Notes: generated from the letters alone by a model not told the origin. 64,000 bases of DNA from Clostridiales bacterium (GCA_014799645.1 JAAVHQ010000004.1:5925-69924); one strand, 5' to 3'; shown: positions 6,143 through 58,700, numbered from the stretch's first letter. Translations and numbers: made by a program.

Positions 6143-7998
6143 TGGAATACACAGAACGAAGTACATTGCGACTTATTGAATTGTTCGCAGGTATTGGCAG
6201 TCAAACGCAGGCTTTGACAAATATCGGTGTGCCGCACGAAGTGGTGGCGATATCCGAAATAGACAAGTATGCTATTAAGAGTTACGAGGCAATGCACGGA
6301 CCAGTCAATAACCTGGGAGATATAAGAGCAATCAAGGAATTGCCGAGCGCGGATATGTGGACATATTCTTTTCCTTGTCAGGATATCAGTGTAGCGGGCA
6401 AAGGCGCAGGTATAAAGGAAGGTACAAGGAGCGGACTGCTGATGGAAGTAGAGAGGCTCTTGAGAACCGCAGCCGAAACCGCTACACTGCCTAAATACTT
6501 ATTACTTGAAAACGTGAAGAACCTTGTGAGTAAGAAATTTAAAGCCGACTTTGACCGTTGGCTTTCTTTTTTGTCTTCGCTTGGGTACACGAACTATTGG
6601 CAAATACTCAACGCCAAAGATTACGGAATACCGCAGAACAGAGAGCGAGTATTTTGCGTGTCGATATTAGGCGAGCATAAGCCTTACGTATTCCCAGAAA
6701 AGCAGGAATTGAAACTGCGACTCAAAGATATGATAGACGCAGTAGTCGATGAAAAATACTACTTGAAAGAAAGTACGATTCGCAGTATTTTGCGGTCGAC
6801 ATTCAATTCGCGTCGTACTAGTATAAAGTCAAGCGAAGGAGTGGCTAGTACGTTGTTGGCGAGAGATTGGCGTGGACCTCAATGCGTTCAAGTTGGAGAA
6901 GTAGTCGGCGAAAAATGGGATAAGATGCACGATATAAGCAAACGTGTATACGAGCCAAGCGGAATATCTCCAACGATACATTGCGCAGGCGGTGGAAATA
7001 CCGAGCCTAAAATTGCGGAGAACTTTGTTCTTGGCGGTTTGCAAAAACACCAAACACCGAGAACCGACGGCATAAGCCCGGCGCTTACTGAGGCAATGGG
7101 AAAAGGTGGCGGTCAAACTCCAATTATTATCGACACCAAAGAAACGGGCGAAGAGCGGTTCTTCAAGCAAGCAGTAGAGGCTGTATTGGAAAACGAATGC
7201 GGAGTCGGAGATACGGTAGACGCATTTAACAAGAAAGTCAACCGCAGCGGAGTATGTCCGACGATTACAACTCGCCCAGAAGGATTCAAGACGGCAATAT
7301 TGCCAATAGTGGAAGATAAGACGGACAATCCGATCATTGTGGCAATGAGAGGTCGCAACCCAGACTATCCGTCGGATAGAACACCAGGCAAGCACTTGGA
7401 ACAAAGACTTGAACCTAACGAAAACGGATTATGCAACACGTTGACTTCGGTACAAAAAGACAACCTTGTATTGGAGAACAAGAGAGGCTCGAAAGAGTAT
7501 GTTGCTCGAAGATATAGGGAATTCATAGAAGTACACGGGTATATGCCAAAGAACTTCGTTGCCTATAACAAAACGGAAGTAAAGGACATTGCTCCGACGC
7601 TTACCGGGCAGTGTTCTTGTCCAAGCGGTAGTTCGGCAGTTTTGATGATGGAAGAGCCGATACAAATCAAAGTCGCAACAAAGCAAGGATACGAGGAAGC
7701 GGAGAAAGGAGATTATGTGAACATAACCTATCCAGGAAGTAACACCAAGCGCGGACGTGTTGGTAAGGGCATAGCTCATACGCTTACTTGTGGAGACGGC
7801 AACGCAGTAATTACGGAAAACATAAGAATCCGCAAGCTCACGCCGAAAGAGTGCTTGAGACTTATGGGATGGAAAGACGAGCAAATCAATAAAATCCAGG
7901 CGGCAAAGATTAGCGGTACACAACAGTACAGGCAAGCGGGAAACGGCATAGTAGTACAGGTCTTGGAGGCAATATTCAAGGCTTTATTTTTTTGTTAG
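6142..7998 (+). CDS. DNA (cytosine-5) methyltransferase with an unusually long, repetitive target-recognition region.
   Basis: Motif I ELFAGIGS, IV FPCQDIS, VI ENVKNL, VIII QNRERVF, IX/X LTPKECLRLMGW...QAGNGIVVQV. About 360 aa lie between motifs VIII and IX, with seven G-x-x-x-T-L/I-T-like blocks. Confidence 0.9.
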   Translation: MEYTERSTLRLIELFAGIGSQTQALTNIGVPHEVVAISEIDKYAIKSYEAMHGPVNNLGDIRAIKELPSADMWTYSFPCQDISVAGKGAGIKEGTRSGLLMEVERLLRTAAETATLPKYLLLENVKNLVSKKFKADFDRWLSFLSSLGYTNYWQILNAKDYGIPQNRERVFCVSILGEHKPYVFPEKQELKLRLKDMIDAVVDEKYYLKESTIRSILRSTFNSRRTSIKSSEGVASTLLARDWRGPQCVQVGEVVGEKWDKMHDISKRVYEPSGISPTIHCAGGGNTEPKIAENFVLGGLQKHQTPRTDGISPALTEAMGKGGGQTPIIIDTKETGEERFFKQAVEAVLENECGVGDTVDAFNKKVNRSGVCPTITTRPEGFKTAILPIVEDKTDNPIIVAMRGRNPDYPSDRTPGKHLEQRLEPNENGLCNTLTSVQKDNLVLENKRGSKEYVARRYREFIEVHGYMPKNFVAYNKTEVKDIAPTLTGQCSCPSGSSAVLMMEEPIQIKVATKQGYEEAEKGDYVNITYPGSNTKRGRVGKGIAHTLTCGDGNAVITENIRIRKLTPKECLRLMGWKDEQINKIQAAKISGTQQYRQAGNGIVVQVLEAIFKALFFC

Positions 7999-8006
7999 GA
8001 GGAAAG

Positions 8007-9125
8007 ATGACGAATAGAATCATAACAGCGGAGTCCGTGACGAGCGGACACCCAGACAAACTTGCGGATCTTATAGCGGACAGCATTCTCGACGAGTGCT
8101 TGGCGCAGGACGAGAACAGCAGAGTGGCTTGCGAAGTTGTGCTTGCTCACAACAAATGTTTTATCAGCGGAGAGATAACGACTTCCGCAAAGGTGGACTA
8201 CAAGGACGTAGCGAAGGCCGTAATCGAACAAGTCGGCTACGACACAGCGGATATTGAGTTCGAGGCTAGAATTCATACGCAAAGCGAAGACATATCTCAA
8301 GCCGTTAGCAAGGAAGAGCAAGGCGCAGGAGATCAAGGCATTGTGTACGGATATGCATGCAACGAAACGGCTCATTATATGCCGCTTGCAATCGAACTTG
8401 CTCATAGACTTACGGATAGGCTCGAAGAGTGTAGATGCAAAGGCATAATCAAAGGACTTCGCCCAGATGGTAAGAGTCAAGTATCAATTCAATACAACGG
8501 CGATAAGTTTGACAAGATTACCTCGGTTGTGGTATCGACGCAACACAGCGAATCGAAGAACCTTGCGGAGTTGACCAAGGAAATACATGAAAAGGTAATT
8601 GGTCAAGTGCTTGCGGGATATGACTTGACGGAAACGGAAATTCTCGTCAATCCATCCGGCAGATTTGTACTTGGGGGATTTGAAGCTGACACAGGACTCA
8701 CGGGACGCAAATTGATGGTTGACTCATACGGCGGAGTAGCGCATCACGGCGGTGGAGCAATGAGCGGTAAGGACGCAAGCAAGGTGGACCGTAGTGGCGC
8801 TTACCTTGCAAGATATATCGCAAAGAACATTGTAGCCGCAGGCTTGGCAGACAAGTGCGAAGTTTCGCTCTCGTATGCCATAGGCGTACCCAAGCCGACT
8901 GCCATTGACGTGAATACTTTTAATACGTCGGCAGTTGACGAGCAACTTATCATAAAGGCGGTGGAAAAGGTGTTTGACCTCTCGGTCGCAGGTGCGATAA
9001 AGAAACTTGACCTTCGCAGTCCTGCATTTTCTCAAACTGCGGTCGGTGGACACTTTGGAAAAGGTTTCTTTATTTGGGAACTGACGGATAAAGTCGAAGC
9101 ATTAAAGGCGGCAGTCAGCGACTAA
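8007..9125 (+). CDS. metK: S-adenosylmethionine synthetase (phage-encoded MetK).
   Basis: Start at the ATG at 8007, behind AGGAGG. Motifs SVTSGHPDKLAD, GAGDQGIVYGYA, DGKSQV, GGGAMSGKDASKVDRSGAY. Confidence 0.9.
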   Translation: MTNRIITAESVTSGHPDKLADLIADSILDECLAQDENSRVACEVVLAHNKCFISGEITTSAKVDYKDVAKAVIEQVGYDTADIEFEARIHTQSEDISQAVSKEEQGAGDQGIVYGYACNETAHYMPLAIELAHRLTDRLEECRCKGIIKGLRPDGKSQVSIQYNGDKFDKITSVVVSTQHSESKNLAELTKEIHEKVIGQVLAGYDLTETEILVNPSGRFVLGGFEADTGLTGRKLMVDSYGGVAHHGGGAMSGKDASKVDRSGAYLARYIAKNIVAAGLADKCEVSLSYAIGVPKPTAIDVNTFNTSAVDEQLIIKAVEKVFDLSVAGAIKKLDLRSPAFSQTAVGGHFGKGFFIWELTDKVEALKAAVSD

Positions 9126-28944: not shown

Positions 28945-30438
28945 ATGGTAAAGAAAAAGGCAGTAGCATACATAAGAGTATCAACTCAAAGCGATGCACA
29001 ATTACATAGTTTCGAATACCAGGTTGATTATTGGAAAAATACCATAAACGAAATAGATGGCTGCGAATATGTAGGTATATATGCAGATAAAGGAATAAGT
29101 GGCAAAGCGTTGGCAAAAAGACCGCAACAACTAAAGTTGATTGCGGACGCAAGGATGCATAAGTTTGATATGGTATTTACTAAATCCGTATCGAGATTCG
29201 CTCGTAATACTGAAGAGTTGCTAGAAATCGTGAGAGAGTTACGCGAACTAGGAATAAAAATATGGTTTGAGAAAGAGCAGATAGACACATTCAATCCATC
29301 GGCAGAGACATATCTCATAATAGCGGCATCAATAGCAGAGAACGATTTGAAAATATATTCGGAGAATATGAAGTGGTCTATTCGCCAGCGATACAAGAAA
29401 GGTTGGATATCTATAGGCAATGGGATGTTCGGCTATAGAATGATCGAAGGAACAAACGATTTGGAAATAGTCCCAGACGAAGCCGATACGGTAAGACGAA
29501 TATATGAGCTTTACCTGGAAGGGCGAGGATTAAAGACCATAGCGGACATATTAAAGAAAGAAAATAGAAAGAATAAGTCGGGCGAAATAGATTGGAACTT
29601 GCGGACCATAAGTTATGTATTATCTAATGAAAAGTACAAGGGATGCGTACTAAATCAAAAAAGAGTCGTTAACCTTGGCGTCTATGAGATAAATAACAAC
29701 TTAGCGCCTAAATATTATATGGAAGGTACGCACGAAGCAATTATCTCCCCAGATGTTTTTGATAAGGTACAAAGGGAACTCGAAAGACGAACCAACGTAA
29801 GGCTAAAAGGCGGACATGTTCCAAGTTATGGATTTTCAAAGTTAGTGCAATGCGCAGTCTGTAAAAAGGCTGCGTTTGCTCATAAAATACAGAATTGTGG
29901 AAAGCCTTGGCAAACTGAAATATGGGTATGTCAAAACCAAAACCTTCATGGGATTAAGAGTTGCTCAAATAAGCGAATCAAGGATACGGTGCTGAAAGAG
30001 AAGTTCGTTGAATGCTATAACGAATTTATAACGCACCACCTAGACAATGATAAATTAAAAGTTCTTAAGAACAAATTAACAGAACTAGTTAATGCGGAAA
30101 GAGAACTGAAAATGTTATATGTCAATCGCATGCTAAATAGCGAAGACTACAAAAAGGAAAATACAAATATTCGGAATGAGATTGCTTATATTAATGATCA
30201 AATTGCTGCAAATGAAATGCGAGGTTTATCTAGGTCGGATTATAAGCCAATAGAAGAGTATGATGAAGATAAAGTAAATAAATTTATAGAGTCGGTATCT
30301 ATAAACCATAGCATCGTATCATTCAAGTTTATTAATGGCGTGGAAATAAGTAGAGAGTTTACAAATGGTTCGCCAGGAAATAAAAAGGGATGGTATGAAC
30401 GCTACCTTGATCAACAAAGAAACAATACGGAGGTGTAA
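28945..30438 (+). CDS. Large serine recombinase 1.
   Basis: AVAYIRVSTQSD (catalytic Ser region), TKSVSRFARNTEE, a recombinase domain, Cys cluster CAVCKK...C, and a C-terminal coiled coil. 497 aa. Confidence 0.9.
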   Translation: MVKKKAVAYIRVSTQSDAQLHSFEYQVDYWKNTINEIDGCEYVGIYADKGISGKALAKRPQQLKLIADARMHKFDMVFTKSVSRFARNTEELLEIVRELRELGIKIWFEKEQIDTFNPSAETYLIIAASIAENDLKIYSENMKWSIRQRYKKGWISIGNGMFGYRMIEGTNDLEIVPDEADTVRRIYELYLEGRGLKTIADILKKENRKNKSGEIDWNLRTISYVLSNEKYKGCVLNQKRVVNLGVYEINNNLAPKYYMEGTHEAIISPDVFDKVQRELERRTNVRLKGGHVPSYGFSKLVQCAVCKKAAFAHKIQNCGKPWQTEIWVCQNQNLHGIKSCSNKRIKDTVLKEKFVECYNEFITHHLDNDKLKVLKNKLTELVNAERELKMLYVNRMLNSEDYKKENTNIRNEIAYINDQIAANEMRGLSRSDYKPIEEYDEDKVNKFIESVSINHSIVSFKFINGVEISREFTNGSPGNKKGWYERYLDQQRNNTEV

Positions 30439-30445
30439 CAGCACA

Positions 30446-32035
30446 ATGCCAATCGCAAAAAGAGTAGTAAAGGAAATACCTGCATTAAATCGCCAAAATG
30501 TGGCGGTAATAAGCAAAAAGGAAAATGTTACTTATTACGCAAGAGTTAGTACCGAAAATGAAGAACAGGAAGATTCTTACGAAAGACAAAAAGAACATTT
30601 CGAGCAGAAAATAAAAGCCTGCCCAGAATGGAATTATGTTGAAGGATACTCCGATTGGGGAGTAACGGGAACTAATGCAGAAGCTCGTAAAAATTTCATG
30701 CGAATGATAGCAGACTGCCGAGCAGGGAAAATCAATAAAATATTAGTGAAGTCAATATCAAGATTCGGTAGAAATACGGTCGACACACTAAAATACATAA
30801 GGGAATTAAAAGAGCTTGGAATCAGCATATACTTTGAAACACAAAACATAGATACATTGACTCCTGGCGGAGAAGTCCTTATAACAATACTTGCAGCAAT
30901 GGCAGAACAAGAAAGCAGAACAATGTCCACAAATATAAAATGGGCATATCAAAAGAGATTTAAAGATGGCAATGTGTTAATAAATTATACAGGTTCGCTT
31001 GGATATACAAAAGAAAATGACGAATATATCATAGTCGAGAAAGAGGCTGAAATAATACGAAGAATTTATAGAGAATACTTAACAGGCAAGTCATTACGTC
31101 AAATTGCCGAAGGCTTAAATGAAGAAGGCATAACTACAAAGCGAGGATACAAATGGCATCCTAATAGTATAGAAGGGGTGCTGGATAATGAGCGATACAC
31201 GGGTAACGCTATACTAGGCAAATCGTTCAAGGCAGATGTGTTAAGTAAAAGTCGCCAAAAGAATGAAGGGCAAGCGCCAATGTACTATGTGGAGAATAGT
31301 CACCCAGCGATAATAAGCCAAGAAATATTCGATATGGCAAAAGCGGAGAGATTACGCAGAGTGGAGTTAAGAAGTTCGGTAAAAACAGGAAATGGTAGAT
31401 ATAGTAGCAGATATCCATTTAGCGGACTCCTAGTATGCTCAAAGTGCGGAGGTAAGTTTAGGAGATTCGGCAGAAAAATTGCAAGTGGGGAGTTTGTCCC
31501 AACATGGATATGTGTAACGCATCAGAAACACCCAGAAATATGCGATATGCTACCTATCAAAGAGAGAGACTTGGAAAATGCATATAAAACTGCTGTAGAG
31601 CGATTTTTGGGCAATGTCGAAGAGGTTAACGATATGATAATGAAAACAATCGAAGACGAAATATTAATCGAACGTGAGACCGATTTGACAGCCGTACAAC
31701 AATCTATCGAAGTAGCGCAACAAGACATATTAGAGTTATTCCAAAGACGACGCCGAAACGAAATAACGATAGATGAATACGAGCAACAATATACTGCCAT
31801 TAGCACAAGAGTAGTAGATCTACAAGAACAAGAAGATAATCTCAAGGCTAATAAAGTAAGTAACCAAATCGCAAAGCGAAGGATGGATGAGATAAGAAAA
31901 GTATTGCAAGATGACCAAGTGGACTATATGGATGGAATGATAATGCGGTTGCTGTTGAATGATATTAAAATTATTAACAAAAAAGAAATAGAGTTTCAAT
32001 TCGAGAGTGGAGTGAAAATTCTATTAAAAGTATAA
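30446..32035 (+). CDS. Large serine recombinase 2.
   Basis: Start moved to the ATG at 30446. YYARVSTENEEQ, VKSISRFGRNTVD, CSKCGGKF...C zinc ribbon, and a coiled-coil tail. Confidence 0.9.
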   Translation: MPIAKRVVKEIPALNRQNVAVISKKENVTYYARVSTENEEQEDSYERQKEHFEQKIKACPEWNYVEGYSDWGVTGTNAEARKNFMRMIADCRAGKINKILVKSISRFGRNTVDTLKYIRELKELGISIYFETQNIDTLTPGGEVLITILAAMAEQESRTMSTNIKWAYQKRFKDGNVLINYTGSLGYTKENDEYIIVEKEAEIIRRIYREYLTGKSLRQIAEGLNEEGITTKRGYKWHPNSIEGVLDNERYTGNAILGKSFKADVLSKSRQKNEGQAPMYYVENSHPAIISQEIFDMAKAERLRRVELRSSVKTGNGRYSSRYPFSGLLVCSKCGGKFRRFGRKIASGEFVPTWICVTHQKHPEICDMLPIKERDLENAYKTAVERFLGNVEEVNDMIMKTIEDEILIERETDLTAVQQSIEVAQQDILELFQRRRRNEITIDEYEQQYTAISTRVVDLQEQEDNLKANKVSNQIAKRRMDEIRKVLQDDQVDYMDGMIMRLLLNDIKIINKKEIEFQFESGVKILLKV

Positions 32036-32182: not shown

Positions 32183-32282
32183 AAAACGATTGATATTGTC
32201 CTAACCACTCTGCCTCGGTTCAGATTTCGTCACCCGCACACAAGTGTATTGGTCTAAAAGTATTCTAGCTTTCAGACCAATA
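32183..32282 (+). repeat. Cassette-end composite repeat, copy 1 (two half-repeats + GGTCTAAAAG hairpin).
   Basis: TGATATTGTCCTAACCAC...AGATTTCGTCACCCGCACACAAG, then ATTGGTCTAAAAG-tattctag-CTTTCAGACCAAT. Confidence 0.7.
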
Positions 32283-32416
32283 TTGTTATGTAATTTAGAC
32301 TAATTTTAGTTGTAATAATGTTTCAATTGTACTATTCTTGGTACATTTGGCCATTTACAATATCTTGAAAGTGTGCCATAATATAGAAAATACTATAAAG
32401 AAAGGAGACAAATTAT

Positions 32417-32692
32417 ATGTTTCATAGATCTTACTATACGAAAGAGGGATATAAACAAATCTATAGACCTAATAGTTCGGAAGCAAGAGAAACTGGATAT
32501 GCACCAGCACATCGTGTTATTGCGAGTAAAAAAATTGGAAGACCGTTATTGCCAAACGAAGTAGTACATCATATTGATGGCAACAAAAAAAACAATCGTC
32601 CTAAAAATTTGCAAGTAATGACTCGTGCCGAACATAATAATTTGCATGGATTAAATTTTAGGGGAAAGGGTAATAGACGTGGTCGCCATTGA
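32417..32692 (+). CDS. Small HNH endonuclease (91 aa).
   Basis: HHIDGNKKNNRPKNLQVMTRAEHNNLH. SD AAAGGAG. Confidence 0.8.
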   Translation: MFHRSYYTKEGYKQIYRPNSSEARETGYAPAHRVIASKKIGRPLLPNEVVHHIDGNKKNNRPKNLQVMTRAEHNNLHGLNFRGKGNRRGRH

Positions 32693-34337
32693 TGAATATA
32701 CACAAGAAAAAGATTGTATTTACAAACAAGAACATTATTCAGTTAGGGATAATGGTGCTGTTTTACGACATAATCCCAAAGGTCAAAACCCACGACCGTT
32801 AGATAATCAATGGACATTTGGCAAACTAAATGAAAAGACTGGTTATTTAGGAATAGCTTCAGTTCCTATACATAGGATAGTTGCTACTGCATTTCATGGC
32901 GAAGCGCCTACTAAACAACATGTCGTTGACCATATTGATACAAATAAGCATAACAATCGCCCAGAAAATCTAAGATGGTTAACAAGATTAGAGAATATAC
33001 TATTAAATCCAATAACAGCTAAAAGAATTGCAATGGTTTGTGGTAGTGTAGTAGCATTTTTAGAAAATCCCTCTAGGTATAGGGATGAATTTAAAGATCC
33101 AAATTATAGTTGGATGGGGAGAGTTAGCCAAGAGGAAGCAAAGGTTTGTTTGGAACATTTGTTGTCGTGGGCAGAAAGCGATAAGAAGCCATCAGGAGGT
33201 ACGTTGGGGGATTGGATATTTGAAAGAAATTCTAATAGGAATATAGAGAAAAAAGAAAACTTAAGTGCTACAGCAGATAAAGAGATAGTTGCCTCAAAGC
33301 AAGAATTACAAAAGGTAAGGACTAGGCAGGATATAAGGAGCAATCCGTTTGGTTTTGCTAGACCTGGCGAATCGGATATGGATAGTTCTATAGTTATGTA
33401 TAAAAAACGAGATGAACTATTTGATAAGATTAAAAAGAGGCTAGATTTTGACAAAAAGTTGAGATTCCCCGAAATCAAAGTACCTACGGCAGGTAAAGGA
33501 ATAACGATAAAAGAGTCTTGGATAGAAGAGATTCAGGACAGTGAAATTCACTACGAAATGACGAAAAGGTCGCCTAAATCTATAATTTTGCATTGTGCTG
33601 GCAAGTCGTTTGCGCTAATAGTTCAAGTGCAAACTAATATAGATACAAATGAGATAGGGAGACTAAAAAAAGAGGGTCTAAACATAGTCGTGATTGATTT
33701 TTCATGGGCAAAAAAAGGTGTCACAGTAGAAGAAATAAAATATATATTGGAAGATGATATCACTAAAAAGCGCTGGATATATCATGAAATGATTCAAAGA
33801 GAGGAAAAACGATTGCAGGATATTAGCGAGCCGATAAGTGACGCAGGGCAAGGAGTGTTACATTCTTATTATGCTTGTCCACTTATTTCAAATGGAGTTG
33901 AAGATGTTGAGTGTTGGTATTGTGATTATAGGATAAAGAGCAAAGATTACGCGCCTTATGATTATTGTTTTGCAAAGTCGGGTGTTCAAACTTATCAAGA
34001 CCTTTTATCTATTACAAACGTTGAAAAAGAAGACGGAAAAATAGTAAGTATTTCTTATAATAAAAACGGTGAAATGATTGTCAAAAAGTTTGACAAAGAA
34101 GTACAACTTCCTGGCAAAACAATGTTCCAATTATGGGGAGAAAGAACTACAGATAAATTGGTTTGTCACAACATATATAGTGATTGGTATGTTTTAATAG
34201 AAGAAAACCCTAAATTGAGTTATGAAAAAAATGAAAAAGTATATGGCAAATTGGGAAGGAATCTGCAAACTTTAGAGCATTGCGAAATGCGAGAAATTTT
34301 TGGTGCAGATAGTTGTTATTGGGAGACTATTAAATAG
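32679..34337 (+). CDS. Fusion protein: N-terminal NUMOD4/HNH_3-type endonuclease module and a ~430-aa C-terminal region of unknown function.
   Basis: YSVRDNGAVLRH, IHRIVATAFHG, VDHIDTNKHNNRPENLRWLTRLEN. C-terminal part has ALIVQVQTN...IVVIDFSW (possible PD-(D/E)xK-like) and a Cys cluster CPL...CWYCDY...C. Confidence 0.65.
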   Translation: MVAIDEYTQEKDCIYKQEHYSVRDNGAVLRHNPKGQNPRPLDNQWTFGKLNEKTGYLGIASVPIHRIVATAFHGEAPTKQHVVDHIDTNKHNNRPENLRWLTRLENILLNPITAKRIAMVCGSVVAFLENPSRYRDEFKDPNYSWMGRVSQEEAKVCLEHLLSWAESDKKPSGGTLGDWIFERNSNRNIEKKENLSATADKEIVASKQELQKVRTRQDIRSNPFGFARPGESDMDSSIVMYKKRDELFDKIKKRLDFDKKLRFPEIKVPTAGKGITIKESWIEEIQDSEIHYEMTKRSPKSIILHCAGKSFALIVQVQTNIDTNEIGRLKKEGLNIVVIDFSWAKKGVTVEEIKYILEDDITKKRWIYHEMIQREEKRLQDISEPISDAGQGVLHSYYACPLISNGVEDVECWYCDYRIKSKDYAPYDYCFAKSGVQTYQDLLSITNVEKEDGKIVSISYNKNGEMIVKKFDKEVQLPGKTMFQLWGERTTDKLVCHNIYSDWYVLIEENPKLSYEKNEKVYGKLGRNLQTLEHCEMREIFGADSCYWETIK

Positions 34338-34344
34338 TGTTCCA

Positions 34345-34446
34345 AAATCGATAGATTTTGTCATACACACTATCGTAAATGCGAGATTTTGTAATATACA
34401 CACAAGTGTATCGGTCTAAAAGTCTTTTGACTATTAGACCTTTTTC
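34345..34446 (+). repeat. Cassette-end composite repeat, copy 2.
   Basis: AGATTTTGTCATACACAC-13 nt-AGATTTTGTAATATACACACAAG, then GGTCTAAAAGTC-tttt-GACTATTAGACC and TTTTT. Confidence 0.75.
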
Positions 34447-34527: not shown

Positions 34528-34556
34528 TTGATTTAATTTATGTTTTTTGCTATAAT
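34528..34556 (+). promoter_or_regulatory. Strong sigma-70-type promoter of the Mrr/helicase/DarT/ARH cassette.
   Basis: TTGATT-17 nt (ending in TGC)-TATAAT, 30 nt upstream of the Mrr ATG. Confidence 0.6.
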
Positions 34557-34585: not shown

Positions 34586-35467
34586 ATGGCAGTTAAAGTA
34601 CCGACATTTGATAGTTTGATTAATCCTTGTTTTATGGCAATTAAAGCATTGGGTGGCTCAGCGTCCAATGACGAAATATATGATGAGGTTGTAAGGCAGT
34701 TGGCATTATCTGAAACCGTATTAGCGGTACAACAACCCGGTCATTTGGCGATGTCAAAAGTTGCTTATAACCTTGCGTGGGCACGTACGTATTTGAAAAA
34801 ATTTGGTGCTATTATTAATACTACACGTTCAATTTGGACAATTACTTCGGAATTTTCTGACGTCAAAGATGTTGACGCTCGTAAAGTTGTTGAATTTGTT
34901 AGAAATTTGGAAGCACAGTCTACAAACAAAAAGGCTCAACTAGAACAAAGAAAAATAGAGAAGGATTTAGTAGTCAGCGAAGATGAACAACCCGAAGAAA
35001 TTTCTTCGTGGCGAATTCGGATGTTGGAAATATTGCAGAATATGAATCCTTATGGATTTGAGCGATTTGTTCAATTACTGTTACGTAATTGCGGAATTGA
35101 TAATGTAGAAGTGACAAAGAAATCTGGTGATGGTGGTATTGACGGTACAGGACAATACAAATTAAGTGGCATTTTTAGTTTTAAACTTGCTTTTCAATGC
35201 AAAAGATATATTGGGAATGTTGGAAGTGGGGAAATAAGAGATTTCCGTGGTTCACTTTCAACGGATATTGAAAAAGCAATTTTTGTAACTACGGGAAATT
35301 TTAGTCCTGCTGCGAAAAGCGAAGCAAAGGCGCCGGGGAAGAAGTCGATAGATTTGATGGATGGTGAAATGCTCATTGACAAAATAGCTGAGTTGAAATT
35401 GGGAGTTTCACCTAAAACAGTATACGAAATAGATGACAAGTTCTACGCACAATATAACGAAGCGTAA
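34586..35467 (+). CDS. mrr: Mrr-type (type IV, modification-dependent) restriction endonuclease.
   Basis: N-terminal winged-helix-like Mrr_N (MAIKALGGSASNDEIYDEV). C-terminal catalytic core GDGGIDGTGQYKL...FQCKRY...IRDFRGSL. Confidence 0.8.
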   Translation: MAVKVPTFDSLINPCFMAIKALGGSASNDEIYDEVVRQLALSETVLAVQQPGHLAMSKVAYNLAWARTYLKKFGAIINTTRSIWTITSEFSDVKDVDARKVVEFVRNLEAQSTNKKAQLEQRKIEKDLVVSEDEQPEEISSWRIRMLEILQNMNPYGFERFVQLLLRNCGIDNVEVTKKSGDGGIDGTGQYKLSGIFSFKLAFQCKRYIGNVGSGEIRDFRGSLSTDIEKAIFVTTGNFSPAAKSEAKAPGKKSIDLMDGEMLIDKIAELKLGVSPKTVYEIDDKFYAQYNEA

Positions 35468-35573: not shown

Positions 35574-37046
35574 TTGAAATTAGTGAAAGAATATGATAAA
35601 ATATGTAAAACAGTATTTAACGCATTTGGAGAAATATTTTTAATGGAACCTAAAGGGAAGCAAAAAGATGTAGTTGATTTACCAGATAGTGGGCATTTCG
35701 TTGTACTAGGAACTGCAGGGAGTGGCAAAACTACGATGGCGCTTTTGAGAGCGAAGCATTTGGGAATTAAGTATCCTAATGCTTGCATTTTGCTTGTTAC
35801 TTTTAATAGAGCGCTTATTTCTTATATGAAGAACCTAGGACTTAAGATGCCTACAAATGTTAATATAGAAAATTATCATCATTTTGCGCGCGGATATCTT
35901 AATAGTCGAAGTAAAATGAATTTCAATTGTATTATTGATACAAATGAAAAGGAAAGTCTCGTAAGTGAAATTCTACTTGAATTTAGGAGCGCAAATCCTC
36001 AAATATCAACGTATAATCGTCCTGCAGAAGATTTTTTCAGCGAAATAATCTTTATTCAGCAACAAGGCTTATCGGAATTGGAGTATCTTACAAAAGAGAG
36101 AATTGGGCGGGCTTCAGTAAATATTAGAAAAGAGAATCGTAAGTATTTTTACGAAGTGTATAAAGAATATATGTATAGACGGAGACTGCTTGGTAAGCTA
36201 TATGATTGGGATGATATTGCTTCGGCAGTATTGGATGAGTTTAAGATAGATTTATCAAGCCGAAAATATATGCATGTAGTGTTGGATGAGGGGCAGGATT
36301 TTTCGCCGCAAATGTTACGTTCGCTTATTGCTGCGATTCCACAAGAAGGAAGTTTTATATTTTTTGGTGATGTTAACCAACAAATTTATGGAAGCAGATT
36401 GTCATGGCGAGATGCAGGAATCAACATAAATCAATCGACTATTTGGCGGTTTAAGGATAATTTTAGAAACAGTTATGAAATATCTGCATTCGCATCTGCG
36501 CTTACAGAAAGTGAATATTGGCAAAAATCTGAAGATGCAGTTCTACCAGCAACGTCGCGTGCGGCAGGGCCATTGCCTGCTGTTATGCATTTTGACAATG
36601 AGAGTTTTGAAATAAAAACAGTTTGCGAATTAGCTCAAAAGCAAGCGATTTCGGCAACAGTTGCGATAATTGTTCGCGATAGGACTGATGTTGCAAGAAT
36701 TACTTCTTTAACTCGAAAAGCCAAAGAAATAAAAAGCGATAAGATTATAGACTATTCATCTCCCGGTGTTTATGTAACTACATACCATTCGGCTAAGGGG
36801 TTAGAGTTTGATTATGTGTTTGTACCATTGTTGAGTTCAGACTATTTACCAAGCAAAGAAAAAGTAGAATTAATGCCTAACAATAAAATAGAGATATTTG
36901 GGGATGAAATCAAATATTTGTATGTAGCTGTTACGCGAGCAAAGTATGGTTTATTTTTGTCGTATTCAGGAATGCCATCATGCTTTATTCCGAAAGTTAA
37001 AGGCATATTTAATTTTAAGTATATGGGTGGAGATAGCAACAGATGA
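35574..37046 (+). CDS. SF1 (UvrD-like) helicase / P-loop ATPase.
   Basis: GTAGSGKTT, VVLDEGQDFSP, TYHSAKGLEFDYVFVP and LYVAVTRAK. Start uncertain: TTG at 35574 or ATG at 35643 behind GGAGA. Confidence 0.8.
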   Translation: MKLVKEYDKICKTVFNAFGEIFLMEPKGKQKDVVDLPDSGHFVVLGTAGSGKTTMALLRAKHLGIKYPNACILLVTFNRALISYMKNLGLKMPTNVNIENYHHFARGYLNSRSKMNFNCIIDTNEKESLVSEILLEFRSANPQISTYNRPAEDFFSEIIFIQQQGLSELEYLTKERIGRASVNIRKENRKYFYEVYKEYMYRRRLLGKLYDWDDIASAVLDEFKIDLSSRKYMHVVLDEGQDFSPQMLRSLIAAIPQEGSFIFFGDVNQQIYGSRLSWRDAGININQSTIWRFKDNFRNSYEISAFASALTESEYWQKSEDAVLPATSRAAGPLPAVMHFDNESFEIKTVCELAQKQAISATVAIIVRDRTDVARITSLTRKAKEIKSDKIIDYSSPGVYVTTYHSAKGLEFDYVFVPLLSSDYLPSKEKVELMPNNKIEIFGDEIKYLYVAVTRAKYGLFLSYSGMPSCFIPKVKGIFNFKYMGGDSNR

Positions 37047-37720
37047 GAATAGCATATGAGGTTTTGTTGAATCATAATGTGAATAGGTTATGTCATTTTA
37101 CAAGATTTGTAACGCTAAAACATATTTTGGGAAGTGACGATGGAATTAAGGCACGCAATTTCGTAGATGGATTAGTGTCACGGCCTACGGATGGTGAAAG
37201 GTTTGATAGGGAAGAAGATTATATTTGTTGCTCAGTCGAATATCCCAACACTTGGTATTTGGACAAAGTTCGCAATGATGACCCCATTTTCAAAGAATGG
37301 GCGGTTTTGTGTATTGATCCAAAGGCTCTATTAAATGCAACAGTTAAGTATAGTGCGTGTAATGCTGCTAGAGAATGTGGTGCTTATGTACATGATGAAT
37401 CTTATGCTATCTCAGAACTGTATAATTCTCGATCGGTATTAGGATTTGAACGCTCAAGTGATATGTTGAAGTGCTGTCCTACAGACGGACAAAGCGAAAT
37501 ATTATTATATAAGAATATTCCGCGACAATATATAACTGGGATTTTATTGCGTTCTGAAAATGCTGCAAAACAATTAATAGTGAGCTTTAAAACGTTAGAG
37601 ATATCAGATACAGTTATTCCTCAAATATGGATAGCTCCTGAAGTTTTTGAGAAAAAAACTTGGAGTAATCTGGCGCGAATCGGGAAGCGACCAGAAGAAA
37701 AAATATATCGGAGGTTCTAA
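37043..37720 (+). CDS. DarT-like (DUF4433-like) ADP-ribosyltransferase candidate.
   Basis: Ordered blocks LCHFTR, DYICCSVEYPNTWYL, YSACNAA, QSEILLYKNIPRQYITGILL. ATGA overlap with the helicase stop. Confidence 0.6.
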   Translation: MRIAYEVLLNHNVNRLCHFTRFVTLKHILGSDDGIKARNFVDGLVSRPTDGERFDREEDYICCSVEYPNTWYLDKVRNDDPIFKEWAVLCIDPKALLNATVKYSACNAARECGAYVHDESYAISELYNSRSVLGFERSSDMLKCCPTDGQSEILLYKNIPRQYITGILLRSENAAKQLIVSFKTLEISDTVIPQIWIAPEVFEKKTWSNLARIGKRPEEKIYRRF

Positions 37721-37722
37721 TT

Positions 37723-39255
37723 ATGTCAATTTTATATAACGATAAATGTACTGGAGCTTTGCTTGCGGCAGCAATAGGTGATGCATTAGGATGGCCATTT
37801 GAGACTCGCGCAGGAAATAAGTGTAAAAAACCTGTTGCTAATGGACAATTCCAAACATGGACAAGGCAGTCTGGAGGACGATTTTGGTCACACACCGAGA
37901 CAATAGAGCGTGGTGAATACAGCGATGATACGCAGCTATTACTTGCTGTTGCTCGCAGTCTTCAATATGGAGATAAATGGAATCAATATTTTGTTAGGCA
38001 AGAATTACCATTTTGGTTGTCCTATGAACGTGGTGGTGGCAATGCCATTAAGACGGCGGCAAGATTTTGGGAAAGGCACGGATGTCCTTGGAGCGAAACA
38101 AACGATTCAAAGGACGTTATAGCTTATTTCAATGCTGGGGCAAACGGCGTCGCTATGCGTATATTGCCGCACGTTATATATGGATTGGCTGATGATGATG
38201 TTGATTCATTGATGTCGGTGGTTATAAGAAACGGTATGTACACTCACGGACATCCGCGTGCTTTGCTTGGCGCCACATGTTACGCTTACGCGCTATATAT
38301 TGCAGGAAGAAAAACTGATTCTCTTGAATATGGTGAACTTGTTGATGCTGTATTGCAAGGACAAAGATACTGGGGTAAATTTCATAACGTGCTTCCAGAA
38401 TGGATTGAAATTGGAAGCAAATCTTTACGAAGTGATTATATGTTTTTGTGGGAGGATACTGCAAGACAAATATGCGAAAACTTAAGACGAATGCAAACGG
38501 CTTTACAATCAGGGCTTTTGGATAATAGTGAAGAATTTTTAAAATCTATAGGCTGTTTTTCACCTGCAACGAATGGCGCAGGTGATGTAAGCGCATTAAC
38601 TGCAATCTACCTTGCATCTAAATATGCGGCAAATCCAAAACAGGGTATTATGGTAGCAGCTTATCTAAAGAACTCAGATACAGATACAAACGCTTCAATG
38701 ACAGGGGCTCTCTTGGGAATGATACAGGGTGTAGATTGGATTCCTTACGAATGGCAAAAAGTACAAGACAATGAATATATATTAGAATTGTCGAATAAAT
38801 TGTTGCAACATAGAGAAGATTCTATAGCATATACGAATAGCCAGCAAAATAATATCCAAGTACCAATCGGTAGTATATTTCCAATAGAACAGCCAAAGAA
38901 ATGTCGTGGTTCAAATTATACTGTTACTATTCAAAAATATAAGACCGCATGGGGACAGACGCTTTATATAAAAAACTTCGATAAAAATAAAAACAAGCAA
39001 GAAGTTGAACAGTTGTCTTTTGATTTTAAGGAACTTCAATCAATCGAATCGGGACATACTCAAAAAGCTATAAACAATGATGTTTTATTAATTTTGCAAG
39101 AATTGTTGTATATTGATAAAAAGATGTCATTGCCAAAACTTGTTAAAATTTTGTCATTAATTTTGTCTACGGACTTATTAGATTCAGAAATTGCGGCACA
39201 AACGAAAACTAAAGAGAAAACTGTAACAAAAATTCGTGAAAATTGTCACAAATAA
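37723..39255 (+). CDS. ADP-ribosylglycohydrolase (ARH/DraG fold) with a ~170-aa C-terminal extension.
   Basis: GALLAAAIGDALGWPFE, YSDDTQLLLAVARSL, SDTDTNASMTGALLGMIQG. SD GGAGG lies inside the end of the previous ORF. Confidence 0.85.
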   Translation: MSILYNDKCTGALLAAAIGDALGWPFETRAGNKCKKPVANGQFQTWTRQSGGRFWSHTETIERGEYSDDTQLLLAVARSLQYGDKWNQYFVRQELPFWLSYERGGGNAIKTAARFWERHGCPWSETNDSKDVIAYFNAGANGVAMRILPHVIYGLADDDVDSLMSVVIRNGMYTHGHPRALLGATCYAYALYIAGRKTDSLEYGELVDAVLQGQRYWGKFHNVLPEWIEIGSKSLRSDYMFLWEDTARQICENLRRMQTALQSGLLDNSEEFLKSIGCFSPATNGAGDVSALTAIYLASKYAANPKQGIMVAAYLKNSDTDTNASMTGALLGMIQGVDWIPYEWQKVQDNEYILELSNKLLQHREDSIAYTNSQQNNIQVPIGSIFPIEQPKKCRGSNYTVTIQKYKTAWGQTLYIKNFDKNKNKQEVEQLSFDFKELQSIESGHTQKAINNDVLLILQELLYIDKKMSLPKLVKILSLILSTDLLDSEIAAQTKTKEKTVTKIRENCHK

Positions 39256-39281: not shown

Positions 39282-39372
39282 TATAGATTTTGTCATACAC
39301 ACATTTCAAAACGATAGATTTCGTAATATACACACAAGAATAACGGTCTAAAAGTCGGAAGACTTTTAGACC
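39282..39372 (+). repeat. Cassette-end composite repeat, copy 3.
   Basis: AGATTTTGTCATACACAC-13 nt-AGATTTCGTAATATACACACAAG, then the perfect hairpin GGTCTAAAAGTC-ggaa-GACTTTTAGACC. Confidence 0.75.
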
Positions 39373-39525
39373 ATGTTTCTTTATATAGTTAGTTGGAGAC
39401 AACAATTTCTAATATATAATATAAATTAGAATTAATATTGATAAATTATTATCATTGTGATAATATGTAAATATTAAGATGGGTAATGTCGAAAATCGAC
39501 TATACGTTTTGAAAGGAATCATCTA

Positions 39526-55704: not shown

Positions 55705-57570
55705 ATGGCAAACGAAAGATATTCTGAGAATTTAGTTTTAGTAGAAATGGGTGTTGGATTAGGTAAGAATGATTTTGGCTATGTTTTTCCACAGGGCGAA
55801 ACTGGTAATTTTGAAGATATTGAAAAACGGTTAAGAGAAATGGGTGGAAAACCAACTAATTGCAAGCTTGACGATTTTTCAACAACTGGTACTGGTAAAG
55901 CAAAACCTGAATACATCGTAACATTTGATGATGACAAAAATACAATCTTACTTGTAGAATGCAAAAAATATGTAAAAGACCACGAAAGCCTAAATAGAGA
56001 TATGCCACAAAAATATGCTGTAGATGGTGCTTTGTTTTATGCAAAGCACTTGAAAGAAGATTATAATGTTTTGGCAGTTGCAGTTAGTGGAACATCAAAA
56101 GAAAATGTAAAAGTAAATACTTTTTATTGGAAAAAGGGCTTTGAAACTCCTCAGGAATTAAAAAAGGCGAAGGATACTATTCTTGAGCCATTAAATTATT
56201 TAAATCTTGCAAACGGCAAAAAGATGGAAAGGAAATTCTCTTTACAAGAAATTCGCGAACTTTCTCAAATAATGCACGAAAAATTAAGACAAATTAAAAT
56301 ATCAGAGAAAGATAAACCTATCTTTGTTGCAGGTATTTTAATTGCTCTACAAAATACAGATTTTAGAAATAATTGGAATAATATTAACTCTTTTAATAGT
56401 TTAGTAAAACTAATGATTGATTCTATTGAAGAAACTCTTGATAATAGTGACATAAAGAGAGAAAAGATAGAAGCAATTAAGAGTTCATTCAGAAGGATTA
56501 AAAGTAACGAAAAAATCAAGTCTATTCTTTTGGGAGAAAGTGGTTCGCTCGCTTGGTTCATTGAACAACTTGAAATGCGTATTTTGCCAATGATGAATCA
56601 TTATGAATATACAGAGGATGCTTTAAGTATTTTTTATCACGAATTTATCAAATATAGTGCTACAGACGGCAAAGGCTTAGGAATAGTTCTGACTCCTAAA
56701 CACTTAACAGATTTTATGTGTAAACTTGGAGAAATAAATAAACAAAGTAAAGTAGTAGATATCTGTTGTGGTTCTGGTTCCTTTCTAGTGACGGCTATGG
56801 GTTTGATGTGTAAAGATGCTAACGAAACTCAAATATTAGACATAAAGAAAAATGGTCTATATGGGGTAGAGCTTGACACGGATTTATATACATTGGCAAT
56901 TACAAATATGATTATAAGAAAGGATGGAAAATCTAATATTGTTTGTGGAGACTGCTTTTCACAAGAAATATACAATAATTTAAGAAACAAACATTTATCT
57001 TTAGGTTTAATAAATCCACCTTATTCGCAAGAAGATAAATGTGAATTAGAGTTTGTTGAACAACTTTTAAGTATTCTTGAAACAAGAGGTTTAGCAGTTG
57101 CAGTTGTTCCTATGAGCTGTGCAATAGGAACAAAGTTTAAAGAAGTACGTGAAAGATTGTTTAAATACCATACTTTAAAAGCGGTTTTTAGTATGCCTGA
57201 TGACATTTTCTATCCTACTGGGGTTAATGTTTGTGTAATGGTATGGGAGGCACATAAGACTCACGATTCTTCTAAGCCCACTTTCTTTGGTTATTGTAAA
57301 GATGATGGATTTGTGAAGAGAAAGAAAATGGGAAGAATCGACTATTACAATAAATGGGATGATATCGAGAAACAATGGTTATATTTGTATGAGAACAAGA
57401 AAGTTGTTGACGGAAAATCAGCTTTACAATGCGTAACAGCAAATGACGAGTGGCTTTGTGAAGCATATATGAAGACAGATTATTCAACATTGACACAAAA
57501 AGATTTTCAACAAACCATAAACGATTATTTAGCTTATTTGGTTAAAAATGGTGATGTTTATGAAAATTAA
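55705..57570 (+). CDS. N6-adenine DNA methyltransferase (NPPY class) with an N-terminal PD-(D/E)xK-like domain. Resembles a BcgI-A-like (type IIB) or HsdM-like subunit.
   Basis: CCGSGSFLV (motif I) and LINPPYSQ (motif IV). N-terminal KPEYIVTFDDDKNTILLVECKKY looks like an HSDR_N/nuclease core. 621 aa. Confidence 0.75.
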   Translation: MANERYSENLVLVEMGVGLGKNDFGYVFPQGETGNFEDIEKRLREMGGKPTNCKLDDFSTTGTGKAKPEYIVTFDDDKNTILLVECKKYVKDHESLNRDMPQKYAVDGALFYAKHLKEDYNVLAVAVSGTSKENVKVNTFYWKKGFETPQELKKAKDTILEPLNYLNLANGKKMERKFSLQEIRELSQIMHEKLRQIKISEKDKPIFVAGILIALQNTDFRNNWNNINSFNSLVKLMIDSIEETLDNSDIKREKIEAIKSSFRRIKSNEKIKSILLGESGSLAWFIEQLEMRILPMMNHYEYTEDALSIFYHEFIKYSATDGKGLGIVLTPKHLTDFMCKLGEINKQSKVVDICCGSGSFLVTAMGLMCKDANETQILDIKKNGLYGVELDTDLYTLAITNMIIRKDGKSNIVCGDCFSQEIYNNLRNKHLSLGLINPPYSQEDKCELEFVEQLLSILETRGLAVAVVPMSCAIGTKFKEVRERLFKYHTLKAVFSMPDDIFYPTGVNVCVMVWEAHKTHDSSKPTFFGYCKDDGFVKRKKMGRIDYYNKWDDIEKQWLYLYENKKVVDGKSALQCVTANDEWLCEAYMKTDYSTLTQKDFQQTINDYLAYLVKNGDVYEN

Positions 57571-58537
57571 TACTTTAAACTGGAAAGAATTTAAAATTGA
57601 CTCTCTATTTAATATTGAACGTGGCAAAATATCAAATTTAAATGAGTTAGAAATTGGGAAATGCCCAGTAGTTTCAGCTTATGGAGAAAATCAAGGGATC
57701 TCATTTTTTGGTAATATAACCCCACAATACTCAAATTGTATAACCGCATCTTTTAATGGTTCTAAAACAGGTTATTTTTCGTATCATGAGTATGCATTTA
57801 ACGCAAATGCAGACTGTGGTATTTTGTTGCCTAAATTTCCAATAAATAAATGTATTGGATTGTTTATGTGTGTGGTTTTGAATAGAATGTCCATAAAATA
57901 TCAATATGGAAGAAAACTTACTATAGATAGACTAAGAGATGAAGCAGTTTTATTACCTTGTAAAAATGAAGAACCTAATTTTGAATATATGGAAGATTAT
58001 ATAAAAACATTAAAATACAAAGAAATAAAAACTAATAATGTTGAAAATAAAAACCTAAATTTAAATGTTGATAGTTGGCAGGAATTCGAAATAGGAAAAT
58101 TATTTCAATTAAAGAAATGTAAATGTGGAAATGCAGGTGCGCTTGAAGATGGAAATGGCGTACCATATATAGGAGCAAAAAAATCAGAAAATGGAGTTAT
58201 GAAAACCGTGAATATAGACAACTCTCTCTTAACCAAAGGTAACTGTATTGTTTTTATATGTGATGGGCAAGGCTCAGTTGGCTATTCGAATTATATGGAA
58301 AAAGATTTTATAGGGAGTACAACTCTTACAGTAGGTTATAATAAAAATCTAAATAAATACAATGCTTTATTTATAGTTTCTGTTTTGGATAAAGAAAGAT
58401 ACAAATACTCTTACGGAAGAAAATATGGGCCGCATTTGGCTAATTCTATTATTAAATTACCAACGAAAGATAATAATCCTGATTGGAATTTTATGGAAGA
58501 TTATATAAAATCATTACAATTTGCTGATAGAATCTGA
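57548..58537 (+). CDS. Specificity (S) subunit with two target-recognition domains.
   Basis: Two halves starting WKEFKIDSLFNIERGK and WQEFEIGKLFQLKK, each ending (M)EDYIK(T/S)L. 329 aa. Confidence 0.85.
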   Translation: MVMFMKINTLNWKEFKIDSLFNIERGKISNLNELEIGKCPVVSAYGENQGISFFGNITPQYSNCITASFNGSKTGYFSYHEYAFNANADCGILLPKFPINKCIGLFMCVVLNRMSIKYQYGRKLTIDRLRDEAVLLPCKNEEPNFEYMEDYIKTLKYKEIKTNNVENKNLNLNVDSWQEFEIGKLFQLKKCKCGNAGALEDGNGVPYIGAKKSENGVMKTVNIDNSLLTKGNCIVFICDGQGSVGYSNYMEKDFIGSTTLTVGYNKNLNKYNALFIVSVLDKERYKYSYGRKYGPHLANSIIKLPTKDNNPDWNFMEDYIKSLQFADRI

Positions 58538-58613: not shown

Positions 58614-58700
58614 TGGTGCCGAAGGCGGGACTTGAACCCGCACGATGTCGCCATCACCGGATTTTGAGTCCGGCGCGTCTGCCAATTCCACCACTTCGGC
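58614..58700 (-). tRNA. tRNA-Leu(CAA), class II with a long variable arm and encoded CCA.
   Basis: Minus strand GCCGAAG...CCGGA-CTCAAAA-TCCGG...GCGGGTTCAAGTCCCGC-CTTCGGC-ACCA. Acceptor, anticodon and T arms all pair. Confidence 0.9.

Follow-up and report, generated by a model that had tools for sequence, protein, structure and literature searches.

Does a DarT-like ADP-ribosyltransferase that is encoded between a helicase and an ADP-ribosylglycohydrolase (ARH) belong to a described anti-phage system, and can a hydrolase of the ARH fold erase the mark which such a transferase would write on DNA? These questions are raised by three tightly packed genes at positions 35574 to 39255 of a contig stretch from a Clostridiales bacterium (GCA_014799645.1, JAAVHQ010000004.1:5925-69924). 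The whole stretch of 64,000 nucleotides (nt) was analyzed and is referred to as the window. A first-pass annotation of the window had read the locus as a non-canonical, DarTG-like candidate defence operon, in which a DarT-like transferase is coupled to a helicase and paired with a hydrolase of the ARH instead of the macrodomain type. Our analysis supports this central reading and places the locus, very probably, in the DarHTG class of anti-phage toxin-antitoxin-like systems.

Results

Operon organisation and relation to DarHTG

The three open reading frames (ORFs) lie on the + strand at 35574-37046 (ORF1), 37043-37720 (ORF2) and 37723-39255 (ORF3). Their head-to-tail packing was confirmed in every detail: the helicase stop overlaps the start of ORF2 in an ATGA (37043-37046), a gap of 2 nt separates the end of ORF2 from the ATG of ORF3 at 37723, and the GGAGG preceding this ATG by 8 nt is located inside ORF2 (37710-37714). 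All peptide blocks quoted in the first-pass annotation were found in the ORF translations, and the profile searches it had proposed gave Pfam matches for UvrD, DarT and ADP_ribosyl_GH well above the curated cut-offs. Furthermore, none of the three sequence-level observations which it had named as counter-evidence was encountered. The locus is an intact three-gene operon of a helicase, a DNA ADP-ribosyltransferase and an ADP-ribosylhydrolase beside a prophage integrase. An Rfam scan of the region from 31 to 42 kb returned no match at E values up to 0.1.

The first-pass annotation did not know this three-gene architecture from any described system. Non-canonical it is, but it has been published with phage-defence data from Escherichia coli as DarHTG (Liu-DS3), composed of DarH, DarT and DarG3 (Liu et al., bioRxiv 8 Dec 2025, 10.64898/2025.12.08.692795; Nucleic Acids Research 8 Apr 2026, PMC13069673). 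DarH is a UvrD-like helicase without a 2B domain, and the antitoxin DarG3 resembles archaeal and eukaryotic ADP-ribosylglycohydrolases (PMC13069673). The E. coli system protects against T4, T5, T7 and SSL_2009a; defence is lost in DarT active-site mutants and in DarH ATP-site mutants, and DarG3 mutants could not be made (PMC13069673). No relevant use of the names DarT3 or DarG3 was found in the literature besides Liu et al.

All four architectural features of DarHTG are present in the window triad. Both consist of three co-oriented, packed genes in the order helicase-DarT-hydrolase, with a 2B-less UvrD-family helicase whose ATP-binding residues are conserved, a DarT-family transferase with an intact active site and, instead of a macrodomain or a NADAR protein, an ARH-fold hydrolase (top Foldseek neighbours MJ1187, Tri1 and ARH3). 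They also share a wide spread across phyla including Thermodesulfobacteriota and Bacteroidota, in which DarHTG is reported to be commonest (PMC13069673); this published distribution fits the clade surveyed below and lends the assignment indirect support. The window copy differs in its origin from a Clostridiales metagenome-assembled genome (MAG), in its position at the end of a prophage with an Mrr nuclease upstream, and in the helical, helix-turn-helix (HTH)-like tail of its DarG3.

The transferase ORF2

ORF2 (37043-37720, + strand) encodes a DarT1-like DNA ADP-ribosyltransferase of 225 amino acids (aa), as indicated by Pfam, an AlphaFold model, fold matching and a family profile. Its membership in the DarT family, claimed earlier from short motifs, was borne out by the match to DarT PF14487 (5.6e-14, 52.8 bits, cut-off 22.5) and by the superposition of the model on DarT structures. 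The model, built from 58 homologues, has a predicted local distance difference test score (pLDDT) of 93. Its best fold match in the PDB is 8BAQ, DarT1 of E. coli C7, with template modelling (TM) scores of 0.76/0.82 and an E value of 1e-15. For comparison, DarT2-type structures from Thermus and Mycobacterium tuberculosis gave TM scores of about 0.6 at 12-16% identity. In the same manner the family profile matched 8BAQ with an E value of 8e-40 and the DarT2-type entry 7OMU with 0.007; the first-pass annotation had compared the ORF2 motifs with those of DarT2-type enzymes, and this comparison has to be replaced by one with the guanine-specific DarT1, which is much closer.

The residues essential in DarT1 are R52, D54, M71, N104 and E152; N104 coordinates the guanine, and its equivalent in DarT2 is a histidine (PMC11543638). 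Across the 58 homologues the counterparts of R52 (R53 in ORF2), N104 (N107) and E152 (E152) are invariant and that of D54 (D55) is at least 90% conserved, while M71 is substituted by Y72. H18 of ORF2 is likewise invariant, so that both the catalytic His and the catalytic Glu are retained throughout the family. Since fold match, family profile and the DarT1 residue set all favour 8BAQ over DarT2, ORF2 is judged, from sequence and model, to be DarT1-like rather than the thymidine-type enzyme implied by the Pfam name.

The ORF2 clade additionally possesses a conserved C-terminal segment, approximately residues 187-225 (window 37601-37720), with invariant G214 and E219. This segment falls outside the region which aligns to the DarT1 crystal structure and could serve as the surface by which DarH or DarG3 is bound.

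The hydrolase ORF3

The identification of ORF3 as an ADP-ribosylglycohydrolase proved sound. The sole family match is Pfam ADP_ribosyl_GH (2.3e-40, residues 11-342), and Pfam, model and fold neighbours together delimit a DarG3-like ARH catalytic domain comprising residues 1-362 (37723-38808, + strand). The model has an overall pLDDT of 88, mostly above 90 in the helical ARH domain, and its Foldseek neighbours are archaeal MJ1187 (1T5J), Tri1 (6DRE), ARH3 and DraG. In the metal-site motifs of the ARH fold D20, S67, D68, D69, D319, D321 and T322 are invariant, and T70 and T320 are conserved to at least 90%. No macro domain was found in ORF3 or in the neighbouring proteins, and no NADAR match among the proteins of the low-GC block in which the triad lies.

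The C-terminal extension, previously left without any assignment, can now be divided into three parts. The first, a confidently modelled five-stranded beta-domain (residues 378-421, 38854-38985, + strand), belongs to all family members, with an occupancy of about 1.0 in 76 homologues and invariant G411, Q412 and K417; it has no Pfam or PDB sequence match. A disordered linker (residues 426-448) follows, which precedes a C-terminal four-helix bundle (residues 452-509, 39076-39249, + strand, pLDDT 83-96). The C-terminus of ORF3 itself gave no Pfam match and a profile of the C-terminal region no PDB sequence match. Relatives aligned to the tail show weak matches to HTH families, the best being Trp_repressor (7e-6), besides HTH_5, HTH_7, Sigma70_r4, GerE and others, and the four-helix tail is probably HTH-like. 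In other clades a glyoxalase-like domain or a DUF1016_N/ParB-HTH module stands in place of the helical tail. Because of these weak HTH matches and the replacement by other modules across clades, the tail is regarded as a swappable module with a probable DNA-binding or regulatory function. One DarG3 homologue (P0356, 627 aa) lacks the helical tail and ends in a DUF1016_N/ParB-HTH module, which supports a DNA-binding role of the variable DarG3 C-terminus.

The helicase ORF1

The earlier call of ORF1 as an SF1 (superfamily 1) helicase of the UvrD type was confirmed, while its start had to be revised. Pfam gave matches to UvrD-helicase (3e-18), UvrD_C (8e-17) and AAA_19, and the best PADLOC matches are the GajB models, which represent UvrD-type helicases (2e-25). 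The motifs invariant in the helicase family, Walker A GSGKT, DEGQD, GD..QQIYG, NYRN, T.H.AKGLEFD and YVA.TR, comprise all SF1 ATPase/helicase motifs, with Walker A, Walker B and motifs III-VI among them. A profile built from ten family members was aligned to E. coli UvrD and covers UvrD residues 11-132, 172-369 and 550-617. Since only 17 profile positions span residues 369-550, the 2B domain is absent.

The longest mechanical ORF begins with a TTG at 35574. This start is contradicted by the N-termini of the homologous helicases, which measure 463-480 aa and begin 3-5 residues ahead of a conserved P-x-GKQ-x-EV motif. Considering these N-termini, these lengths and the 467 aa of the helicase in the closest relative, the likely start is the ATG at 35643, giving a DarH-like SF1 (UvrD-family) helicase of 467 aa (35643-37046, + strand). 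A GGAG (35628-35631) precedes this ATG.

Conservation and distribution of the triad

In a scan of species-representative genomes a relative of ORF2 was found in 210 genomes. Altogether 80 loci were kept, plus 4 found earlier, and neighbours were counted only where the flanking DNA sufficed. The helicase is encoded upstream of the ORF2 homologue in 72 of 75 informative loci and the ARH downstream in 77 of 79; both together, in the order helicase-DarT-ARH, occur in 69 of 71. The survey of gene neighbourhoods suggested by the first-pass annotation thus shows ORF2 homologues to be linked to both partners almost without exception.

The relatives of ORF2 number in the hundreds and measure about 225-235 aa. 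In Paenibacillus, Streptomyces and Opitutaceae the DarT gene is flanked by those of a UvrD helicase (~470 aa) and an ARH (550-610 aa); as called, these genes overlap or are a few to about 20 nt apart. Hosts of the triad belong to Bacillota, Actinomycetota, Bacteroidota, Thermodesulfobacteriota, Verrucomicrobiota, Chloroflexota, Cyanobacteriota and Gammaproteobacteria. The window DarT shares 43% identity with the nearest species representative and 71% with a metagenomic protein and is, by sequence comparison, a divergent member of the family; an overlapping triad is also present on the contig of the closest relative (locus L085 of our survey). On plasmids (tblastn) triad-type copies were found in Ralstonia, Shinella, Streptomyces and Rhodococcus, and no enterobacterial one. 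Among GenBank phages tblastn detected no relative, and 3 of 2.9 million viral contigs in IMG/VR carry one, in all three cases as a full triad.

Several individual loci were conspicuous. One subgroup of 24 loci (among them L003, L046, L047, L057, L062 and L064) is distributed over Thermodesulfobacteriota, Verrucomicrobiota, Victivallales, Gammaproteobacteria and Hydrogenedentes, and its DarT proteins share 83-94% identity, a sign of recent horizontal transfer between phyla. The DarG3 proteins of this subgroup have a glyoxalase/bleomycin-resistance-like domain (Glyoxalase_2, 3e-8) at their C-terminal end. A MAG labelled Candidatus Bathyarchaeia (L027, CAZQTZ010000055.1) contains a complete triad of the Lachnospiraceae type, reflecting either misbinning or a transfer from bacteria to archaea. 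In Acetivibrio thermocellus (L089-L091, gene 7001-8530) an orphan DarG3-like gene of equal length and 42% identity occurs without DarT or DarH, with several insertion sequence (IS) transposase genes ahead of it and, immediately behind it, genes for an OLD/TOPRIM ATPase and a UvrD helicase that resemble a Gabija pair. This orphan is probably the relic of an antitoxin within a defence island.

Comparison with other known systems

The closest solved relative of the transferase belongs to DarTG1 (DarT1-NADAR, E. coli C7, 8BAQ; profile E 8e-40, TM about 0.8). Besides the anti-phage role, DarTG1 and the window system share the Arg/Asp pair, the guanine-coordinating Asn and the catalytic Glu. They differ in the antitoxin, which is an ARH in the window and a NADAR in DarTG1, in the obligate helicase partner, in the extra conserved C-terminal segment of about 40 aa in the window transferase, and in the Tyr at the position of DarT1 Met71. 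DarTG2 (DarT2 with a macrodomain DarG; Thermus, M. tuberculosis, enteropathogenic E. coli) has in common with the locus the DarT fold, the toxin-antitoxin logic of writing and erasing DNA ADP-ribose and an abortive-infection-type defence. However, the match is weak (TM about 0.6, 12-16% identity), the thymine-coordinating His is replaced by the invariant N107, and both the macrodomain and the DarT-binding C-terminal domain of DarG are absent from the window. The antitoxin fold, ARH with no NADAR or macro domain match, excludes a canonical DarTG1 or DarTG2.

Pairs of an ADP-ribosyltransferase (ART) and an ARH, such as Tre1-Tri1, DraT-DraG and a Listeria pair (8ZA7), follow the same principle in that an ARH-fold enzyme neutralises its cognate transferase, and the structural neighbours of ORF3 include both Tri1 and the immunity protein from Listeria. 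Their transferases, in contrast, are of the R-S-E type and target protein arginine instead of DNA, and no helicase accompanies them. An SF1A core serves phage defence in Gabija GajB and other UvrD-like helicases as well, and ORF1 matches the GajB models; yet ORF1 is shorter, lacks 2B, is always coupled to DarT and ARH and has no GajA OLD/TOPRIM partner. Gabija was rejected, as no GajA-like gene is present in the block.

Genomic context

Positions 1-28 kb of the window are occupied by genes for the packaging and structure of a prophage (terminase, portal, major head protein, tape measure). At the prophage end two large serine recombinase genes are arranged in tandem (28945-30438 and 30365-32035, the ORFs overlapping by 74 nt). 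They are followed by a low-GC block (33-37%) with an HNH_3 protein, an Mrr-type nuclease, the triad, a membrane protein and a thioesterase-like protein, and from about 41.2 kb by host-like genes (glutathione peroxidase, MarR, FeoB). A megablast comparison of the integrase-HNH region with phages gave no match, and hence no related prophage by which a boundary could be set. The earlier description of the triad as prophage cargo is plausible from its place just past the two recombinases.

A promoter of the operon had been proposed at 34528-34556. The site exists (TTGATT-17-TATAAT, TG-extended, + strand) but precedes the Mrr gene and not the helicase. A second site (TTGAAA-17-TAAAAT, TG-extended, 35574-35602, + strand) is located between Mrr and the revised helicase start. 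Both are consensus matches only, and in this AT-rich stretch 45 promoter-like sites were found while 41.8 are expected from shuffles. As such sites are no commoner than in shuffled sequence, neither is evidence by itself.

An intergenic repeat of 95 nt occurs in three copies. The one at 39283-39377 (+ strand), with a strong, terminator-like hairpin at 39345-39372, lies just after ORF3 and closes the operon; the upstream copy with its hairpin (34351-34445, + strand) follows the HNH gene and marks the left edge of a cassette of Mrr and triad; the third (32189-32283) follows the second serine recombinase. Each copy is situated just 3' of a stop codon, so that the copies bracket gene cassettes, and consists of two sub-repeats of ~20 nt (AGATTTYGTMATAYACACAC) and a subsequent hairpin GGTCTAAAAGT-N6-ACTTTTAGACC. 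This hairpin pattern has 3 matches, with 0 expected. The same hairpin is found on the contig of the closest relative (L085:~36; also L086:~73). The repeat may serve as a terminator used in common, as a site for a regulator or as one for recombination.

The protein at 32679-34337 (552 aa) carries an HNH_3 endonuclease domain at its N-terminus, about 440 further residues being without assignment, and its gene forms a repeat-bounded cassette of its own, placed after the recombinases and before Mrr. Upstream of its triad the contig of the closest relative likewise encodes an HNH_3 fragment, together with a WYL protein. A second low-GC block (about 31%, 55705-58537) with the methylase and specificity subunit of a type I restriction-modification system adjoins a tRNA-Leu(CAA) gene (58614-58700) and is probably another integrated defence island.

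The Mrr-type restriction endonuclease (Mrr_N and Mrr_cat; 34586-35467, + strand) ends 175 nt upstream of the revised helicase start. It matches Pfam Mrr_cat (9e-27) and Mrr_N (6e-14) as well as the PADLOC models type IV mREase and PDC-S02. The gene is an optional neighbour of the triad that may be co-transcribed with it. A further possibility is a four-component system, in which Mrr would either cleave DNA that is modified or ADP-ribosylated or, acting upstream of DarH, detect modified phage DNA, the triad being incomplete here without it. Mrr and helicase are indeed on the same strand and in one repeat-bounded cassette, and a terminator scan called no terminator between them; at least 11 further loci have an Mrr-like gene adjoining the triad. 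In a subclade from Desulfobacterota and Verrucomicrobiota (L062:5472-6527 and about 10 similar loci) a gene with 2xHARE-HTH and Mrr_cat overlaps the helicase start, on one viral contig (L094:8435-9505) an Mrr-like gene immediately follows DarG3, and in Paenibacillus (L001:1191-3401) two Mrr-like copies stand upstream of the triad. On the other hand, Mrr is directly upstream in just 7 of the 62 loci with room for it, it is missing in the closest relative, its N-terminal modules vary by clade (Mrr_N versus HARE-HTH), which fits independent defence-island neighbours, and the E. coli system functions as three genes. We consider a four-component system unlikely.

Discussion

Proposed mechanism and chemistry of reversal

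For the three-gene DarHTG-type system we propose the following working model. DarT (ORF2) would use NAD+ to place ADP-ribose on a DNA base, blocking the replication of invading and, if unchecked, of host DNA. DarG3 (ORF3), as a metal-dependent ARH-fold antitoxin, would erase the modification in uninfected cells and perhaps also bind DarT or DNA via its beta-domain and HTH-like tail. DarH, a 2B-less UvrD-type SF1A ATPase/translocase, would be needed to switch the system on against phage DNA: by engaging phage replication or recombination intermediates it would expose single-stranded DNA (ssDNA) for DarT, or deliver DarT there, so that during infection modification would outweigh erasure. With regard to the individual steps, guanine-N2 is, by a small margin, our expected target, reversal of the modification by hydrolysis in the ARH domain is a somewhat better founded expectation, and the role of the helicase as ssDNA provider or sensor is suggested tentatively.

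The weak point of this scheme is the chemistry. According to PMC11833690, NADARs are the only family known to reverse the ADP-ribosylation of guanine bases, and in Table 1 of PMC12945103 only NADARs are tabulated for guanine-linked ADP-ribose. The activity of human ARH3 on thymidine-linked ADP-ribose is only marginal (PMC12879935). The text of the DarHTG paper contains no biochemistry on the reversal (PMC13069673). There are three ways out of this tension: DarG3 could possess a new ARH activity, the acceptor could be another one than the DarT1-like residues suggest, or neutralisation could be partly non-enzymatic.

Points against the assignment

A number of observations weigh against the assignment to DarHTG and the mechanism derived from it. 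The assignment was made by architecture and published description. A blastn search of 5,426 complete E. coli genomes with the window triad, a gammaproteobacterial triad (L057) and a Bacteroides triad (L017) found nothing, and a protein search with the gammaproteobacterial DarT yielded no E. coli sequence among the best 120 of 626 matches. The large clusters consist of Syntrophus, Marichromatium and metagenomic sequences, and no E. coli entry is among the top protein matches to ORF2 of the window. The functional data come from the E. coli exemplar. Against the PADLOC DarT model ORF2 reached an E value of 0.012 only, by which its clade is judged divergent from the canonical DarTs of the defence databases. 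One of the five essential DarT1 residues, M71, is a Tyr in ORF2, the other four being kept. Reversal of guanine-linked ADP-ribose is not known from any enzyme of the ARH fold, which is in tension with a DarT1-like ORF2, and the sequence gives no indication of what the helicase senses.

Alternatives to a DNA-directed defence system

The same chemistry could be taken to favour a protein-directed switch, in which ORF2 modifies Arg or Ser of some protein, for example the helicase or one of a phage, and the hydrolase undoes this, as in DraT-DraG or Tre1-Tri1, DNA not being the substrate. ARH-fold enzymes are classically specific for protein Arg/Ser linkages, the structures nearest to ORF3 include DraG, ARH3 and Tri1, and the reversal of guanine-base ADP-ribose is known from NADARs only. 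Nevertheless, ORF2 is a member of the H-Y-E-type DarT family, whereas DraT and Tre1 form part of the R-S-E clade; the base-coordinating Asn and the Arg/Asp proton-relay pair of DarT1 are retained in ORF2, its best fold match is a DarT1 of the DNA-bound type, and its obligate partner is a DNA helicase. We regard a protein-directed switch as quite improbable. Least probable of all is a role in housekeeping or element maintenance, with reversible DNA ADP-ribosylation controlling the replication or induction of prophage or host, or with the triad as a plain addiction module: DarTG regulates replication and growth in M. tuberculosis (PMC12170906), the triad is found at a prophage end beside recombinases, and its patchy distribution, suggestive of horizontal transfer, would suit an addiction module too, but the same architecture protects E. 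coli from four phages in dependence on the DarT and DarH active sites, the genes beside the triad, in the window as in other loci, are those of restriction-type nucleases or are Gabija-like, and the rarity of the triad on viral contigs argues that it is not part of a standard phage lifecycle gene set.

Implications

A helicase-coupled DarHTG defence system consequently remains our preferred interpretation. The helicase-DarT-ARH architecture is already published and validated as DarHTG, and no claim of discovery is left. The survey adds that the system is very widespread (210 species-representative genomes, many phyla) and that the linkage of its genes is near-invariant. Further details added here are the conserved beta-domain of DarG3, its swappable C-terminal modules (HTH-like, ParB-HTH/DUF1016, glyoxalase-like) and the recurrent Mrr neighbours. 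A DarT1-like transferase with guanine-type residues raises the question whether an ARH fold can erase base-linked ADP-ribose. In its most far-reaching form, which we put forward as a rather doubtful combination of several assumptions, the transferase of this clade modifies guanine, DarG3 is the first ARH-fold eraser of guanine-N2 ADP-ribose, the helicase licenses DarT as sensor or ssDNA provider, and Mrr is a recurrent, optional fourth component; the guanine/ARH reversal, the helicase licensing and the Mrr component are not addressed in the text of the DarHTG paper (PMC13069673). If this combination were true, macro, NADAR and ARH would represent three unrelated hydrolase folds that were independently recruited as DarT antitoxins. 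The prophage-borne Firmicute copy described here could serve for the study of the system beyond E. coli.

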